This document shows, in pieces, positions 52,450 to 60,624 of a stretch of DNA of 64,000 nt. The DNA comes from Eubacteriales bacterium (GTDB lineage Bacteria; Bacillota; Clostridia; Oscillospirales; CAG-272). Position numbers and translations under genes: made by a program. Positions within the stretch are counted from its first letter, which is position 1. Each line of letters starts with the position of its first letter. The notes beneath the pieces are model-generated. The model was not told where the DNA came from, made no database searches, and was given only the letters and a program-made list of their open reading frames with translations. Where the stretch lies: assembly GCA_045611965.1 (NCBI GenBank), contig JAZKYE010000062.1, positions 443 to 64,442 on the forward strand, read 5' to 3'.

Positions 52450-54036
52450 ATGGATGATAAGAAAAAAACTTCAGCTGATGACAAAATAACAGAGCGCGAG
52501 AATTGCGAAGAGCTGCTTTTATTCGCCGATGACTGCGAAGCAACGGTAAAGAGTAAGGACTTCTTCACCACGGGCACACCAGAGGATGAGGATGCGCTGA
52601 CCTGCTCTATCGAGCAAGCACTTTTGTGTCTTAAAGAGCTTTACGCTATGGATTATACCGACATAGACAAGCCGCGAGTGCTGACGCTCATCAGGATTTA
52701 TATTGGACGGGCTCTGATTTCCTTTGTATCAAGAGTATTCCCAAAAATTCTTGTAAGTAAATCCTTTTCGGATAACAATCAAATCAACGAATATATGAAT
52801 TCAAGGTGCAGGGCAAGCGCTGACGATATTGAAGAGCGGCTTGCTTTAATCGAGCAGTATGTATCTCTTTGCGACAAGGACGAGTTTTCCCCCTATTTTA
52901 CGAAGCGAAGCGGTTATATCGGCTTAGAAGATGGGTATTTTGACGCATTCAGAAAATACGCCCTCGGCACACTGCGCGTCCTTTACGATATGACGATAGC
53001 CGATTTTAACCCGTCATACAGCCTTATAAAGTCAGGCGACCCGACGGCAAAGGAAAAAACCGCCGCGGCAATCAAGCAGGCAGAGCGCGTGCTTCCCACT
53101 CTGCGCTGGATAATGCGCCGCTCGCTTGACACGGTTTTCGTTGACCTGACGGGGCTTCTCACCGCAAGCCTTTGCCGCAACTGCTCGGCAGGCTACCACA
53201 ATCTTGCAATCTGCGCTGAAAACGAAATCAGAAGCATCGGGCAAAAAAAAGAGCACCGCAGTCCCGAACACGACGAGCTTCAGCGTCAGGCACGCACCGC
53301 AAGGCTACGCGAGCAAATGTACGCGGCACGCACCCACACCTATTCTTATCTTCTTGACAGACACGGAAGAAACGACAAGGTAAAGAATTTCGTAAAGGAC
53401 ACGCTGAATATGAAAGCTGACCTTTCGCTGATGAAACACATTGACCTTTTCCACACAGCGATAAGCCTTGGCGGTGAGCATCTTGATTTCTATCTTGATA
53501 ATCAGAGCGAGAAGGGACTGCTTCATTGGTTTAACGGCTTGAAGCCGCTGTGGGACAGAGCCGACGAAACGCTCGGCAGGATGCTTTCGGATATAGCAGG
53601 CTTTCTCACAAGTCACCTTGATGATATAAGAGTTAAAAGAATTCTTTATTTCAGCAACTTCTACGAAACACTTGCCATAGCCTACGCCTACAACTACGGC
53701 TGCTATGAGATATCCGAAAAAATAATCTACAACGGATACGATTATTATCTTGAGCTAAGCACCCTATGGCTGATATTCAGGTTTAACAGACCTGCGTTTG
53801 AGAGCGAGATAAAAAAGCTTAAGGCAATTTGCCTTGAACGCGCTCTTAAATGCTCGGCAGACGATTACTATGCCACAAAAAAATACATACGCACCCTTTA
53901 CGGTGACGAGTTTGTTGACGAGTTCCGACGCATAGCCGAGTCGTCACTTGCCGAAATTGACAGAAATGATGATAAAGACCCTCGCAACCGCGACGGAAGA
54001 ATCACGCCAGAGTGGGCAAGAAACCAAAAGCGATAA
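52450..54036 (+). CDS. Hypothetical all-alpha protein (528 aa)
   Basis: Long clean ORF with a GGGGAGG RBS and an acidic N-terminus. No recognisable catalytic motif. Confidence 0.5.
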   Translation: MDDKKKTSADDKITERENCEELLLFADDCEATVKSKDFFTTGTPEDEDALTCSIEQALLCLKELYAMDYTDIDKPRVLTLIRIYIGRALISFVSRVFPKILVSKSFSDNNQINEYMNSRCRASADDIEERLALIEQYVSLCDKDEFSPYFTKRSGYIGLEDGYFDAFRKYALGTLRVLYDMTIADFNPSYSLIKSGDPTAKEKTAAAIKQAERVLPTLRWIMRRSLDTVFVDLTGLLTASLCRNCSAGYHNLAICAENEIRSIGQKKEHRSPEHDELQRQARTARLREQMYAARTHTYSYLLDRHGRNDKVKNFVKDTLNMKADLSLMKHIDLFHTAISLGGEHLDFYLDNQSEKGLLHWFNGLKPLWDRADETLGRMLSDIAGFLTSHLDDIRVKRILYFSNFYETLAIAYAYNYGCYEISEKIIYNGYDYYLELSTLWLIFRFNRPAFESEIKKLKAICLERALKCSADDYYATKKYIRTLYGDEFVDEFRRIAESSLAEIDRNDDKDPRNRDGRITPEWARNQKR

Positions 54037-56983: not shown

Positions 56984-57694
56984 CTACCGCGCGCATTTAA
57001 GCAGCTCTTCGAGCTCGGTGTCGGTAAGGTAGCGCCACTTTCCTCTATCAAGCCCCTCATCGAGTGTGATAGGACCAAAGGTAACGCGCTCAAGCGAGGT
57101 TATTTTGTTATTAACCGAGCCGAGCATTCTTTTTATTTGGTGATACTTTCCCTCTGTGAGAGTTATAATTCCCGAAGTGCGCTCGCTATCCGCCAAAAGC
57201 TCTGCGCTCTTACATACATATCCGTCGGCAAGAACAGCGCCGCGCGAGAAGATTTCCTCACAGTCCGCGCGAAGCGGCTCGGCGCAGGTGAAGCGGTAGG
57301 ATTTCGTCACGTGGCGCTTGGGCGAAAGCCATCTGTGCGCGCTCTGCCCGTCATCGGTAAGAAGCATAAGTCCTACGGTGTCCTTATCAAGCCTGCCAAC
57401 AGGAAAGAGGTCTCTTTCGCGAAGCTCGTCAGGCAGAAGCTCGGTGACGAAGGGATGCGCCTTGTCATCAGTTGCGCTGACGTAGCCCTCGGGCTTGTTC
57501 AGCATCACATAAACATATTTGCGATACTCTATCGCTCTTCCGAAATAGCAAACTCTGTCACGCGCAGGATCTACGTGCGCGGATGCGTCGCGCACGACCT
57601 CACCGTTTACGGTTATGTCACCGTGTTTTGCGGCGCGCGAGGCTTCCTTTCTTGATGCTATCGCCATATCGGATAAAAGCTTATCAATCCTCAT
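56984..57694 (-). CDS. rsuA: Pseudouridine synthase, RsuA/RluB family (S4 domain plus catalytic domain)
   Basis: MRIDKLLSDMAIASRKEASRAAKHGDITVNGE is the S4 domain. The catalytic motif is GRLDKDTVGLMLLTDDG. Start is ambiguous (57694, 57703 or 57715); 57694 gives the typical MRxDK N-terminus. Confidence 0.85.
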   Translation of the reverse strand: MRIDKLLSDMAIASRKEASRAAKHGDITVNGEVVRDASAHVDPARDRVCYFGRAIEYRKYVYVMLNKPEGYVSATDDKAHPFVTELLPDELRERDLFPVGRLDKDTVGLMLLTDDGQSAHRWLSPKRHVTKSYRFTCAEPLRADCEEIFSRGAVLADGYVCKSAELLADSERTSGIITLTEGKYHQIKRMLGSVNNKITSLERVTFGPITLDEGLDRGKWRYLTDTELEELLKCAR

Positions 57695-58613
57695 TGCTCT
57701 CATTATCCGCGGCACACTCGCCGCACTCTTTCCTTTTTATGTTAAAATTAATCTCGCTGACGACAGACGAGCCGACGATAAGAACCGCGCCTATTATCAT
57801 TAGCGGTGTCATGCTCTCACCTATCACTATCGCAGATGCTACGAGCGCGACTATCGGGTCGGTATAGCTGTAAATCGCAACCGTATTTGCAGGAAGTCCG
57901 GTTGATGAGCCGAAATAAAGTATGTATGCAAATCCCGTATGCACGCATCCGATAATAAGGATAGGTATAATCTGCCCTGCCTGAAACGAAAAACCGGAAA
58001 ATCCCCCCGTCAGAAGCACATATGGCACAAGCACCACAGCGCTTACGACGAACTGTGCTGCCGTTTTGGTAAGAGGCTCAATATCCTTCATCTTTTTATT
58101 ACATACTATAATAGCCGCGTATATTATTGCCGCCACAACGCCAAACGCAATTCCCTCATAGGTAATGCCCTCAGCACCGCCATCAATTACCCCCGAAACG
58201 AATACCATACCCAAAAGTGCCGCGGCAATACAGCCGAGCTTTTTTGGCGTGAGGCGTTCCTTAAAGAATATTGGGGATATGCACACGAGAATTATGGGTG
58301 CCAGGTAGTAGGCGAGCGTTGCGGTCTGCACCGTAGTAAGACGGCACGCCTCGAAGAAGGCTATCCAGTTAAGACCGAGCATCGCACCCGAGAGTACAAG
58401 CAGGAATTTATTGCGAAGCGCGCCACAAATATCAGGCTTGCGTCTTAGCACGAGCATAAATAGCGCAATAAATATGAAGCCTATTGCCGAGCGCAAGAGC
58501 GCAATCACGCTTGACGGATACGGCAAAAGCCTCGAAAACAGTCCAACCGTGCCAAAAATCATCATACTGACAATAAGACACGTAAGATTTACTACATAAG
58601 ATTTATTTTTCAC
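57684..58613 (-). CDS. DMT superfamily (EamA-like) transporter
   Basis: 309 aa with about 10 TM helices arranged as two EamA-like halves. Confidence 0.75.
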   Translation of the reverse strand: MKNKSYVVNLTCLIVSMMIFGTVGLFSRLLPYPSSVIALLRSAIGFIFIALFMLVLRRKPDICGALRNKFLLVLSGAMLGLNWIAFFEACRLTTVQTATLAYYLAPIILVCISPIFFKERLTPKKLGCIAAALLGMVFVSGVIDGGAEGITYEGIAFGVVAAIIYAAIIVCNKKMKDIEPLTKTAAQFVVSAVVLVPYVLLTGGFSGFSFQAGQIIPILIIGCVHTGFAYILYFGSSTGLPANTVAIYSYTDPIVALVASAIVIGESMTPLMIIGAVLIVGSSVVSEINFNIKRKECGECAADNESNED

Positions 58614-58889
58614 GAAGGCTGTCCACCTTTTTGAATTCTTTTATTTACGACAATTATACAACTTTATCCGCGCACAGTCAATAACGAAAGCCTCAAAATA
58701 TTTAAAATAAAGAAAAGACATAAATGCTCTTGCTTAAGACGAAAATGAGGTGCGTCAAGATCACTCCTCGCACGCACCATAATTTAATTCTATCATATAA
58801 TCTTTCGTTTGTAAATATGTTTTTGTGTATTTTGCATAATTTCTATATATTGCACAATTTTTTATTGTGAAGTTTTTACAATTTGTCAA

Positions 58890-58919
58890 TAGACACAACG
58901 CTTGACGGTGTGATATACT
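58890..58919 (+). promoter_or_regulatory. Extended -10 sigma-A promoter of the non-coding unit
   Basis: TAGACA (58890-58895), an 18-nt spacer, then TGaTATACT (TG at 58911-12, -10 at 58914-58919). Confidence 0.55.
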
Positions 58920-58930
58920 ATAGGTGCAGA

Positions 58931-59133
58931 GAGGAAGGTACAGTCCAATGGGAAAGTAAAACAAAATCCAAAAACAAAAATCAAGCAAGGAAGGTTCGGT
59001 CCAATGAGAAGTTAACCTAACCCGTCGAAAACAAATAATTCAAGGAAGGTTCACTCCAATGAGAAGGTAGCCCCAAAAATCAAACAGCAGACTATCTTAA
59101 AATCAACAAGGACGGTATAATCCAATGAAAAGT
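58931..59133 (+). repeat. Four tandem imperfect ~27-nt units (consensus CAAGGAAGGU-N4-UCCAAUGAGAAGU) spaced 55-66 nt apart at the 5' end of the ncRNA
   Basis: Units are at 58931-58957 (GAGGAAGGTACAGTCCAATGGGAAAGT), 58986-59012 (CAAGGAAGGTTCGGTCCAATGAGAAGT), 59041-59068 (CAAGGAAGGTTCACTCCAATGAGAAGGT) and 59107-59133 (CAAGGACGGTATAATCCAATGAAAAGT). Confidence 0.85.
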
Positions 59134-59550
59134 TTACTTTAAAACCTCTGTAGGGTGGGCAGACGGTAAAAGAAAATTTCATATCGGAAAGTTGTCGGAA
59201 AGGTTAATCACTAAAAGAAAGGAAAGAGAGCAAAGCTCAAATCGGTGACAACCGTCACCCCGGTGAGGTTACTCAAAGCATCGAAAATCGGTTGGTAGTA
59301 AGAGCTAAACCACGGCGGTGTTACGCATTACATAGATGAAGTAATACGAAGAAAACCAGCTCTTAACCGATAGGTAGAAGCAAAGAGTGCTTCAAAGCTC
59401 CGCAAAATAGAATACTACAAGGAAAGCAGCCTATTCCAGGTTTTGGAAGTAAGATGATTTAAGGATTTCAGCGAGTATGAAAGCAGTAGCGGAGATAGCA
59501 ATACGAAAGTGAGGATTAGTAAAGATGTTAGATATCAAGGATAATCACTG

Positions 59551-59602
59551 ATAGCCCTGAAAGCGCGTGCGTACGAAGCGATTTCAGGGCTATCAGATTT
59601 TT
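59551..59602 (+). terminator. Rho-independent terminator of the ncRNA unit
   Basis: ATAGCCCTGAAA (59551-59562) pairs with TTTCAGGGCTAT (59582-59593), followed by CAGATTTTT. A second small hairpin GGCA-gtata-TGCC plus T7AT5 follows at 59605-59630. Confidence 0.8.
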
Positions 59603-59622
59603 ATGGCAGTATATGCCTTTTT

Positions 59623-60303
59623 TTATTTTTGCACATCTACTATTTTTTCAAGATTATCAAGAATAAATTTCTGCGCCTCTTTGGTAAGGAAAACCGCGGT
59701 GCGTATCTCGCCCGTCGTTTCATCAACGGTATCCTCGGATACAATTCCCACACTTTCCGACATATCGGTGGGAAGATACGCCTTCTCTGATTTAATAACC
59801 GTGATGCGGTCCTCGCGCACATAGCCTGCGTCAGAAAGCCAGCGCATTACCGCCGCCGCGCCGAGATTTTTTACCCCACGGTCGGTTATATGCTTGTTTA
59901 TTCTGGCAACAAAGCCGCCGATGCGTACGGGCTTTTCTGTAAGCGTTATTGCCGCGCGGTCAAGAAATTCGACGGAAAAGGCTCGCTTTTCATATACGGC
60001 AGTAGTGGTTGGCTCTTTCTTCGTCAGCTCACCTATAAGCTCTGCCGCATCGTAAAGCGCCCTTGCTACATCATCCCTTTTAAGAATGGGATCGTCAAGC
60101 AGCTCGCCCGTAATCGGGTCCTTTGATACAGACAAAGCGTAGAGGTAATTTCTTATCGCTTCCGCACGGCACTCGTCATCCCCCTTTGGCATAAGCTCGT
60201 CAGGGTCAGGCGGTATAATCCTATCGCTAACACCGTCAGGTGCTACTACTGCATCAGGAAAGGGCAAGGCGTTTACATCATAAAGTCCGTTATTCATAGG
60301 CAT
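59623..60303 (-). CDS. Hypothetical protein (226 aa), convergent with the ncRNA
   Basis: Clean ORF with an AGAGGAA-type RBS. I recognise no family. Confidence 0.5.
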   Translation of the reverse strand: MPMNNGLYDVNALPFPDAVVAPDGVSDRIIPPDPDELMPKGDDECRAEAIRNYLYALSVSKDPITGELLDDPILKRDDVARALYDAAELIGELTKKEPTTTAVYEKRAFSVEFLDRAAITLTEKPVRIGGFVARINKHITDRGVKNLGAAAVMRWLSDAGYVREDRITVIKSEKAYLPTDMSESVGIVSEDTVDETTGEIRTAVFLTKEAQKFILDNLEKIVDVQK

Positions 60304-60459: not shown

Positions 60460-60534
60460 GCTGGTGTGGCTCAATGGCAGAGCAGCTGATTTGTAATCAG
60501 CAGGTTGTTGGTTCGACTCCGATCACCAGCTCCA
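60460..60534 (+). tRNA. tRNA-Thr (anticodon UGU), CCA encoded
   Basis: Manual cloverleaf: acceptor GCTGGTG/CACCAGC, D arm GCTC-AATGGCA-GAGC, anticodon arm GCTGA-TTTGTAA-TCAGC, T arm GTTGG-TTCGACT-CCGAT, then discriminator T plus CCA. Confidence 0.85.
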
Positions 60535-60539
60535 TATAG

Positions 60540-60624
60540 GGGGGAATTCCCGAGCGGCCAAAGGGGGCAGACTGTAAATCTGTTGTCATCGACTTCGCTG
60601 GTCCGAATCCAGCTTCCCCCACCA
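60540..60624 (+). tRNA. tRNA-Tyr (anticodon GUA), class II with a long variable arm, CCA encoded
   Basis: Acceptor GGGGGAA/TTCCCCC, anticodon arm GCAGA-CTGTAAA-TCTGT, long variable arm, T arm GCTGG-TCCGAAT-CCAGC, then A plus CCA. Confidence 0.85.

Follow-up and report, generated by a model that had tools for sequence, protein, structure and literature searches.

Tandem Shine-Dalgarno-Like Units in a Predicted Stand-Alone RNA Family of Clostridia

The array in the window

We analyzed a 64-kb stretch of contig JAZKYE010000062.1 (assembly GCA_045611965.1), hereafter called the window, from a Eubacteriales bacterium of the lineage CAG-272. Between a gene for an EamA-type transporter and an open reading frame (ORF) of 226 amino acids (aa), approximately 1 kb of DNA contains no credible ORF. 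Four tandem copies of a short unit are located in this stretch, each composed of a Shine-Dalgarno (SD)-like sequence, AUG, and an early stop codon. The pattern GGAMGGT-N4-TCCAATG matched the window four times, always on the + strand (58933, 58989, 59044, and 59110), against 0.02 matches expected from shuffled sequences. A repeat search returned a 31-nucleotide (nt) unit in four copies, with start-to-start spacings of 56, 55, and 66 nt. The AUG lies 9 nt past GGAAGG or GGACGG. An earlier sequence-only reading of this DNA had described four SD-AUG-stop units with these spacings, and both searches bore it out. Translation reproduced the tiny frames that it had listed (MGK, MRS, MRR, and MKSLL) and also the common stop position of three of them. 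The stops of units 1 to 3 (TAA, TAA, and TAG) fall at one shared offset. In unit 4, UUA occupies the usual stop position and an in-frame stop follows two codons further on. A profile built from 82 units of the family described below found only the four known copies, and further degenerate copies were not found in the rest of the RNA.

The linkers between the units are rich in A and C. Linker samples contained 56% A, 28% C, and 5.6% G, and the 5' 200 nt of the RNA were 45% A with an essentially open centroid fold. The hexamer CAAGGA occurred five times on the + strand (58986, 59041, 59107, 59418, and 59536), while 0.14 (shuffles) to 0.3 (observed window-wide rate) copies are expected per 680 nt of one strand. 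The sequence-only reading had listed five copies with well under one expected; the enrichment held, and one coordinate, 59535, is corrected here to 59536. Three of the five copies belong to the units, and the copy at 59536 lies within the small ORF near the 3' end.

Several features support the view that the units form the 5' third of a predicted RNA of approximately 675 nt that is independently transcribed (Table 1). A promoter scan identified TAGACA-18-TATACT with TG, the -10 element of which ends at 58919, and transcription likely starts at approximately 58925-58927. The predicted promoter and the intrinsic terminator together indicate a stand-alone RNA, and no long ORF is present within it. 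The terminator was missed by a consensus scan, probably because its 11-nt loop exceeds the limit of the scan.

Table 1. Positions of the units and of the surrounding features in the window
Feature	Position	Strand	Description
Unit 1	58930..58959	+	GGAAGGU 58933-58939, spacer ACAGUCCA, AUG GGA AAG UAA 58948-58959 (MGK*)
Unit 2	58986..59015	+	GGAAGGU 58989-58995, spacer UCGGUCCA, AUG AGA AGU UAA 59004-59015 (MRS*)
Unit 3	59041..59070	+	GGAAGGU 59044-59050, spacer UCACUCCA, AUG AGA AGG UAG 59059-59070 (MRR*)
Unit 4	59107..59142	+	GGACGGU 59110-59116, spacer AUAAUCCA, AUG AAA AGU UUA CUU UAA 59125-59142 (MKSLL*)
Inter-unit linkers	58960-58985, 59016-59040, 59071-59106	+	A/C-rich, almost G-free, predicted unpaired, little kept between species
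Promoter region (predicted)	58841..58919	+	Upstream block (ACAA-A/T tract, TTTTTACAAnTTGYCAAT) and extended -10 TGATATACT at 58911-58919
Whole transcription unit (predicted)	58926..59604	+	Four units, body of ~380 nt with one conserved central motif, terminal small ORF, terminator
Central conserved motif CCACGGCGGUGUUACGCAUUACAUAGAUGAAG	59310..59341	+	Short hairpin and YAUAGAUG; in the long-form alignment; outside the units
Terminal SD (GUGAGGA) and small ORF	59510..59551	+	ORF 59525-59551, MLDIKDNH*; UGA inside the 5' arm of the terminator
Intrinsic terminator	59548..59604	+	19-nt arms 59548-59566 and 59578-59596 (95% complementary), then AUUUUUAU (U run)
EamA-type transporter gene	57684-58613	-	Flanks the array stretch
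226-aa ORF	59623-60303	-	Convergent with the RNA; no Pfam or NCBIfam match

Genes for tRNA-Thr(UGU) and tRNA-Tyr(GUA) (60460-60624, + strand) begin approximately 860 nt past the terminator of the RNA, beyond the convergent ORF. A 528-aa ORF elsewhere in the window (52450-54036, + strand) was, similar to the 226-aa ORF, without a Pfam or NCBIfam match.

A family of arrays in Clostridia

Homologous arrays were sought in genomes and metagenomes. The genome scan covered one genome per species and required two adjacent units. It returned 46 loci, approximately 29 of which were real and approximately 17 chance matches. The real carriers were all Clostridia, except for one bin labelled Holdemanella. 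Carriers included Blautia (B. wexlerae among them), Lachnospiraceae, Ruminococcus, Oscillospiraceae, and further Clostridia/Eubacteriales, in addition to gut and rumen metagenomes. The pattern of the genome scan contained AATG and thereby favored units with a start codon; the census was therefore repeated with a core from which the start had been left out. The metagenome scan required the start-free pattern GGAAGGTAYRGTCC twice and returned 32 loci, 31 of which were real. The other (L056, contig Ga0123352_10112419) was a chance match to an unrelated, near-perfect 19-nt tandem repeat (GGAAGGTACGGTGCTGACA...). In total, the family comprised 61 arrays with approximately 210 distinct units, and each RNA carried 2-11 tandem copies. 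A blastn search of 50,697 phage records revealed no similar sequence, and two scans of viral contigs gave 0 matches and then six unrelated tandem repeats. Rfam 15 returned only tRNAs and chance matches, both at the gathering threshold (the window and 15 loci) and in E-value mode (the RNA at E≤10, and four arrays). A literature search, in which the literal unit sequence was included, found no description of such an RNA.

The unit is described with the A of AUG as position 0. The information profile was based on 99 units, the start-blind census on the 210 distinct units of the 61 arrays, and the census of the SD on 205 distinct units. The conserved blocks are an A tract (-21 to -16), GGA(A)GGU (-15 to -9), A at -8, GUCCA (-5 to -1), AUG, the triplet RRA (AAA, GGA, AGA, AAG, or GAA), A at +6, and UAA at +9 to +11. 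YR at -7/-6 is variable, +7 and +8 are free (approximately 0 bits), and conservation 3' of +11 is lineage-specific. Unit spacing had a minimum of approximately 47 nt, a median of 59 nt, and a range of 47-80+ nt.

The sequence-only reading had proposed to ask of homologues whether the AUG, the stop position, and the SD-like element are conserved. All three were conserved across the 61 arrays, the start in 67% of units. In the start-blind census, the start position was ATG in 134 units, GTG in five, and TTG in two. Every one of these 141 start-bearing units had a stop in frame, after two codons in eight, three codons in 116, five codons in 16, and six codons in one. The triplet at +9 to +11 was TAA in 97 units, TGA in 11, and TAG in eight. 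The closest homologue of the window RNA, L021 from an uncultured Ruminococcus, has the same four units with identical cores and diverged linkers. The triplets at the stop position of the window and L021 were TAA and TGA in unit 2, TAG and TAA in unit 3, and TTA and TAA in unit 4, and the stop was retained in two of these pairs. Unit 2 of L021 reads AGC UGA, with codon 3 synonymous with the AGU of the window; unit 3 reads AGC UAA and unit 4 AUG AAA AGU UAA. Within close clusters, start-bearing units toggled among the three stops only, whereas a start-less Blautia unit had drifted to TTA, CAA, CTA, and CAG. When the core was sought upstream of open frames of at least 30 codons, only eight chance matches were obtained, none of which was a family unit. 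The idea that the units start the translation of real genes was rejected on this result.

Three types of units are mixed in the arrays of 7-11 units at L055, L059, L072, L073, and L074, which originate from rumen and gut metagenomes. These types are five-codon frames (MDTAK* and MGTTE*, with wobble changes GCA/GCG and ACU/ACG/ACA), a two-codon frame (AUG AAA UAG), and start-less units. The start-less units read CCCAAGGAGACUUAAG and are followed by GAUCUACCUC, a sequence similar to the tail of 16S rRNA.

The architecture of the RNA differs among lineages. Long forms, to which the window RNA belongs, have a conserved promoter region, 2-4 units at the extreme 5' end, and a variable body with a hairpin and YAUAGAUG. 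They close with an SD and a small ORF (MLDIKSEQK*; MLDIKDNH* in the window), the stop of which is located in the terminator stem. Approximately 75 nt upstream of the -10 element were conserved across 12 long-form loci of different species (ACAAAAAAnTATTGT...TTTTTACAAnTTGCCAATTG...TGnTATAAT), with the block of the window aligned to those of 11 homologous loci. Such conservation is unusual for a promoter and suggests that the block holds a UP-like element, an operator of a common regulator, or both. Homologues of the terminal ORF read MLDIKSEQK*, MLDIKNNH*, and MIEPKQEQK*. Its nucleotides GAUGUUAGAUAUCAAG were near-invariant across otherwise diverged species, and synonymous changes appear too few for constraint on the peptide alone. 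Array forms have 5-11 units, at times split by the same central motif, followed by a unit-like five-codon frame and a terminator. These closing frames (MDQSE* and (UUG)DTES*) are placed like the terminal ORF of the window. In rumen-type arrays, units are also present 3' of the central domain. The central motif CCACGGCGGUGUUACGCAUUACAUAGAUGAAG is the sole well-conserved element in the body of the window RNA, and arrays of the Lachnospiraceae and rumen types have a related element, AUAGAUG(U), which often reads AUG-UAA or AUG-UAG.

The genes flanking the window array and the arrays of the genome scan had no common neighbor. Since flanking genes are not conserved, we regard the RNA as an independent gene. 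Genes for ABC-type proteins were located upstream of four loci, and a linkage to ABC-F proteins was considered. However, it was dropped because only one of the four (L011) is a true ABC-F gene, the other three encoding fused transporter proteins. The L011 gene (5989-7542, - strand) is of the 'ribosomal protection-like' type (NF000355, 403.7 bits, cut-off 380). Approximately 208 nt separate its end from a long-form RNA encoded downstream on the same strand, an arrangement seen at this locus only. At six Blautia loci (L004, L005, L010, L016, L034, and L041), the array adjoins what we take, from the look of the N-termini, to be a divergent enolase, with a presumed RNase R 2-3 kb off. This neighborhood represents synteny of the Blautia lineage and was not seen at other loci. 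At L009, L020, and L033, the array is followed by what seems to be a gene for an alpha-L-arabinofuranosidase, and the ribosome-binding site of this gene, AAGGGACGGUAUGAUUUAUGG, is similar to the unit variant GGACGGUAU (cf. unit 4 of the window). In L021, the DNA 3' of the RNA resembles the region of the 226-aa ORF by eye, and this ORF may be conserved there.

Predicted complementarity to 16S rRNA and a proposed ribosome-docking reading

The conserved parts of the unit coincide with those predicted to pair with 16S rRNA. As the tail, we assumed GGAUCACCUCCUUUCU, since the window and the homologous loci contained no 16S gene. With this assumed tail, the predicted duplex of unit positions -24 to -1 had a mean energy of -15.9 kcal/mol. 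Regions preceding the first ATG of long ORFs in this DNA gave -8.6 kcal/mol, and shuffles gave -6.3. The predicted paired positions (-20 to -14, -12 to -9, and -5 to -2) are the conserved ones, and the predicted loop (-7 and -6) is the variable part. In nearly every unit, GUCC at -5 to -2 paired with GGAU in the optimal duplex, with A-Y-R looped out. The extra nucleotide in the SD varied: GGA-A-GGU in 112 units, GG-C-AGGU in 20, GGA-U-GGU in six, and none in 15, with GGA-C-GGU and GG-U-AGGU also occurring. GGU was invariant across the units of the SD census. Such an extra nucleotide, changing in identity and position next to an invariant GGU, behaves like a bulge within an RNA duplex. The SD consensus of Clostridia is AAAGGAGGU, which is complementary to ACCUCCUUU (PMC10783764). 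The SD-like block of the unit corresponds to this consensus, usually with one extra nucleotide inserted. We infer that the conserved spacer (A..GUCC) of the unit prolongs the complementarity to the 16S tail, with the tail being assumed and the family amounting to one evolutionary observation.

These results lead us to propose, tentatively, that the RNA is an array of ribosome-docking minigenes, with one docking site per unit. Judged from their sequence, ribosome capture is a likelier role of the units than the encoding of a product. The conserved blocks are what a bacterial ribosome reads, namely, an A tract with GGA(N)GGU, a start exactly 9 nt past GG, and a stop, in most units two further codons on. 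The spacing of at least approximately 47 nt, in G-poor unstructured linkers, leaves room for one ribosome per unit. A ribosome decoy or minigene array was among the suggestions of the sequence-only reading, and in its SD, spacing, early stop, and 16S match it fits the homologues best, although a third of the units do not have the start that it calls for.

The mechanism that we envision is as follows. The sequence 5'-AAAGGA(A)GGU[AYR]GUCC-3' would pair with 3'-UUUCCU-CCA[C]UAGG-5' to form an interrupted duplex of 13 bp, which would clamp the 30S subunit far tighter than ordinary mRNA. At units with AUG, the ribosome would initiate, synthesize fMet-X-X, and meet the stop while still tethered by the SD. 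It would then be released or recycled in place and would not translate into the RNA. Start-less units may function as pure SD-type pads for 30S subunits, similar to the stabilizing SD (STAB-SD) discussed below. The transcript would stay loaded with 2-11 ribosomes or 30S subunits, one per unit. Since many members contain little besides units, we speculate that holding or titrating free ribosomes, as a ribosome or anti-SD buffer, is the likeliest main function. Shielding of the RNA 5' end from 5'-exonuclease would probably be a side benefit in the long form of the window. A fuller version of this proposal is conceivable but doubtful: a natural ribosome-sponge RNA transcribed from a strong conserved promoter, in which a 16S clamp of approximately 13 bp and three-codon cycling at AUG units would buffer free 30S/70S or shield the 3' ends of idle 30S subunits.

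A number of results weigh against ribosome docking. A start is lacking in 69 of the 210 units (33%), in which CCA (25), AAG (20), AUC (8), ACA (6), and CCG (6) take its place. UAA or UAG is retained at +9 in 52 of these 69 units, which indicates that the stop is conserved partly independently of the start. In three arrays from human gut metagenome contigs (L064, L066, and L068), all six units have AUC or AUU; UAA at +9 and the core are kept, while RRA is lost. The start-less units and this lineage show that translation is not a universal requirement, and UAA may act beyond termination. Furthermore, the changes from UAA to UGA or UAG are transitions, and the excess of such changes over others is only weakly significant in consideration of transition bias and shared ancestry. 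The duplex raises its own difficulties. A-8 and the bulged A-13 are highly conserved, yet predicted to be unpaired, and selection for maximal 30S affinity would be expected to yield a perfect complement, unlike the units. For CC (-3, -2) to pair, G1529/G1530 at the base of helix 45 would be needed, with only 1 nt then remaining ahead of AUG. Full pairing may thus be sterically incompatible with placement in the P site unless the distal part melts. In many Lachnospiraceae units, a downstream ACC(Y)(Y) could also mask the SD.

Alternative explanations and known systems

The same complementarity to the assumed 16S tail would also suit units that act as 5' stabilizers of the STAB-SD type, on which parked 30S subunits or ribosomes block decay of the RNase J type in the 5'-to-3' direction. 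The immediate stop would then merely keep ribosomes from entering and unfolding the body of the RNA, and function would reside in the 3' two-thirds and the terminal ORF. In the window and other long forms, the first unit is located approximately 7 nt from the predicted 5' end, start-less units fit because a STAB-SD needs no start codon, and the conserved central motif and terminal ORF could be the payload. However, many arrays of Blautia and Lachnospiraceae consist of 5-11 units and then a terminator, which leaves little to stabilize. One 5' site should also suffice, yet 2-11 are kept over up to 700 nt, and rumen-type arrays have units 3' of the central domain. We consider this explanation to be unlikely as the main function. 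Units acting as bar-type minigenes, in which peptidyl-tRNA drop-off sequesters tRNAs (Lys, Arg, or Gly, then Thr) or senses the capacity of peptidyl-tRNA hydrolase, are very unlikely. The frames themselves are suitable: SD, AUG, 2-5 sense codons, and a stop are present in all four window units and 67% of the family. Thr (ACN), the commonest last codon of the mini-ORFs, occupies codon 3 in 32 of 84 units, codon 2 is AAA, GGA, or AGA in 60 of 84, and the window RNA has the tRNA-Thr and tRNA-Tyr genes on its 3' side. The nucleotide after UAA is in most cases C (42 of 99 units, the largest class), and C after a stop is a poor termination context in Escherichia coli. On the other hand, neither the peptide (41 different mini-ORF peptides) nor the identity of the last codon is conserved, and the start-less units and the AUC lineage are incapable of this mechanism. 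Linkage to tRNA genes was found elsewhere only near L041, and tblastn against the window and 78 loci detected no pth nearby. A toxic, strongly promoted chromosomal element would also need tight control, of which there was no sign.

Two further explanations set translation aside and regard the unit as a protein-binding site or as a folded module; both had been raised by the sequence-only reading, and neither was supported by the comparison of homologues. The units may mimic an initiation region bound by a regulator, such as CsrA or another repressor, with the array titrating this protein, which is quite unlikely. Sponges of the CsrB/RsmZ type are built in this way, as stand-alone RNAs with a repeated, single-stranded, conserved motif. 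AAGGA is present in 65% of units, and approximately one third of all units have a second GGA (AUGGGA/AUGGA) approximately 18 nt downstream. Start-less units that retain all other conserved bases, including UAA, fit a protein footprint better than translation. However, the form CAAGGA is a trait of the window lineage, and approximately 18% of units have C at -18. GGA was found upstream of the start position in 134 of 205 distinct units and was replaced in the rest by GGCAGG, GGUAGG, GCGAGG, AGAAGG, and others. A dispensable GGA next to an invariant GGU is the reverse of the CsrA requirement and speaks against a sponge for CsrA. The motif is not presented by a hairpin, and sites are sparse, at least approximately 47 nt apart against approximately 17 nt in CsrB. 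The length classes of the frames (two, three, five, and six codons) and the interchange of stops are left unexplained. CsrA, FliW, flagellin, Hfq, and Pth gave no tblastn match in the window and the 78 loci (approximately 600 kb, not whole genomes). In addition, many carriers are Blautia, which is described as non-motile, and this also counts against a CsrA sponge. The least probable explanation is that each unit is a hairpin, with AUG...UAA looped out between an SD-like 5' arm and an anti-SD-like partner, ACC(Y)(Y), further downstream, and serves a structured RNA as a building block or a module for processing or multimerization. AAGGUAcAGUC of the Blautia type can pair with GAUUUACCUU and GGUAcGGUC of the rumen type with GAUCUACC. 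Minimum free energy folds paired -11 to -8 with +17 to +20 in approximately 40 of 176 units, and the 3' arm of some long-form units extends over the stop codon, with changes that look compensatory (AGAU/AUCU in L039 and AGUU/AACU in L011). Nevertheless, pairing in the best fixed-register stem reached 48.5% of cells; column shuffles gave 47.4%, and slid partners 38-48%. The covariation score of the candidate stem was 0.109 vs 0.100, showing no excess, and RNAalifold on the units gave two invariant G:C pairs (GG:CC) at -0.92 kcal/mol. In any register, the duplex of the core with its own downstream flank had -6.0 kcal/mol, only approximately 0.5 kcal/mol better than shuffled flanks (-5.55), while the flanks of other units gave -5.7. 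The register of the 3' arm varies by lineage, and the arm is missing in window units 1 and 4. ROOL, GOLLD, OLE, raiA, HEARO, or any other Rfam model did not match the family, the repeated module of which is without covarying structure. In the absence of a family-wide hairpin in a fixed or flexible register, the unit appears to be conserved as a sequence that is read single-stranded.

The proposed docking sites share features with several known systems. The minigenes of lambda bar occur singly, in a phage, and came to notice through the phenotype of a mutant host. The units resemble these and engineered minigenes in having an SD, AUG, 2-5 sense codons, and a stop, and in a frame that can be finished while the ribosome is bound to the SD. 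However, the family has 2-11 copies in a conserved chromosomal RNA, the spacer is conserved, and one third of the units are start-less. Peptidyl-tRNA drop-off is associated with lambda bar and with engineered minigenes of 2-6 codons (PMC2490762 for the minigene concept). An SD, a start, up to approximately six codons, and a stop were found in 4/4 window units and 141/210 family units, and the 69 start-less units deviate from this pattern. Another relevant element is the STAB-SD of Bacillus thuringiensis cryIIIA mRNA (Agaisse and Lereclus 1996, cited in PMC10783764). This SD-like GAAAGGAGG near the 5' end, complementary to the 3' end of 16S rRNA, reportedly stabilizes the mRNA without a start codon. 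The GAAAGGA(A)GGU of the family is similarly near the 5' end, complementary to 16S rRNA (-15.9 vs -8.6 kcal/mol, tail assumed), and serves no gene; start-less units fit this likeness. In contrast, an mRNA leader carries the STAB-SD only once, whereas the family has tandem sites, mostly with a start and stop, an extended GUCC core, and a stand-alone RNA that often consists entirely of units.

CsrB/RsmZ are also stand-alone RNAs with many copies of a short, purine-rich, SD-like motif. However, the family does not have the GGA requirement or the hairpin loops, its sites are approximately threefold further apart, and its start and stop registers are conserved. Three-codon leader ORFs occur upstream of ABC-F resistance genes of Firmicutes (lmo0919 of Listeria and vmlR of B. 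subtilis). They resemble the units in being very short frames with a strong SD that hold a ribosome rather than make a product, but are single and attenuate a downstream gene, while the family is tandem and has no regulated downstream gene. The type III antitoxin RNAs ToxI and CptI consist of tandem repeats followed by a terminator and occur in Lachnospiraceae (PMC3401426). The family shares the tandem repeats, the terminator, and the occurrence in Lachnospiraceae. However, the repeats of ToxI/CptI hardly differ from one another, have a fixed length, and stand ahead of a toxin (endoribonuclease) gene on the same strand, whereas the units are spaced 47-80+ nt apart by divergent linkers and have no conserved downstream ORF. 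A type III antitoxin array was rejected on these grounds: spacing and linkers vary, and the downstream genes differ by lineage and are convergent in the window.

Other resemblances were also rejected. A CRISPR array does not agree with repeats that differ at defined positions or with linkers that are inter-related, A-rich, and of varying length. Guanidine-II (mini-ykkC) has an invariant ACGR tetraloop; the center of the unit is AYRG, most commonly ACAG, and there was no mini-ykkC match in Rfam. The U of a T-loop (UGNRA) is not conserved in start-less units, and the binding loop of PyrR (ARUCCAGAGAGG) has only AGUCCA in common with the unit. Mimicry of 16S helix 45 (GGAAGGUGCGG vs GGAAGGUACGG) lacks the 5' strand, and the commonest variant, ACAG, disrupts the match. 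The bases that concern an 11-nt tetraloop receptor are the unconserved ones. Iterons acting at the DNA level were ruled out by strong strand asymmetry and the fixed orientation from promoter to terminator.

We know of no family in which such elements are arranged in tandem to make up a conserved stand-alone RNA. Since the family did not match CsrB-type, type III antitoxin, CRISPR, or guanidine-II elements and Rfam and the literature searched were silent, we consider the family to be new in kind, with its function inferred from sequence alone. Among its carriers are several of the most abundant commensals of the human gut (B. wexlerae, other Blautia, Lachnospiraceae, Ruminococcus, and Oscillospiraceae), and also rumen bacteria. 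Two carriers, B. wexlerae MSK.20.46 and Blautia sp. MSJ-9, are in culture. If the ribosome-docking reading is true, this would be the first natural RNA family with the task of binding the ribosome as a ligand, and not of being translated or forming part of the ribosome. It would represent a trans-acting RNA regulator of the translation machinery, without a described precedent, and a further level at which translation is controlled globally. It would also provide a physiological context for minigenes, which, to our knowledge, have been known for decades solely as a phage or laboratory curiosity. Even if this reading is wrong, a 29-nt element that is kept base by base across families of Clostridia, up to 11 times per RNA, points to a specific and important ligand.

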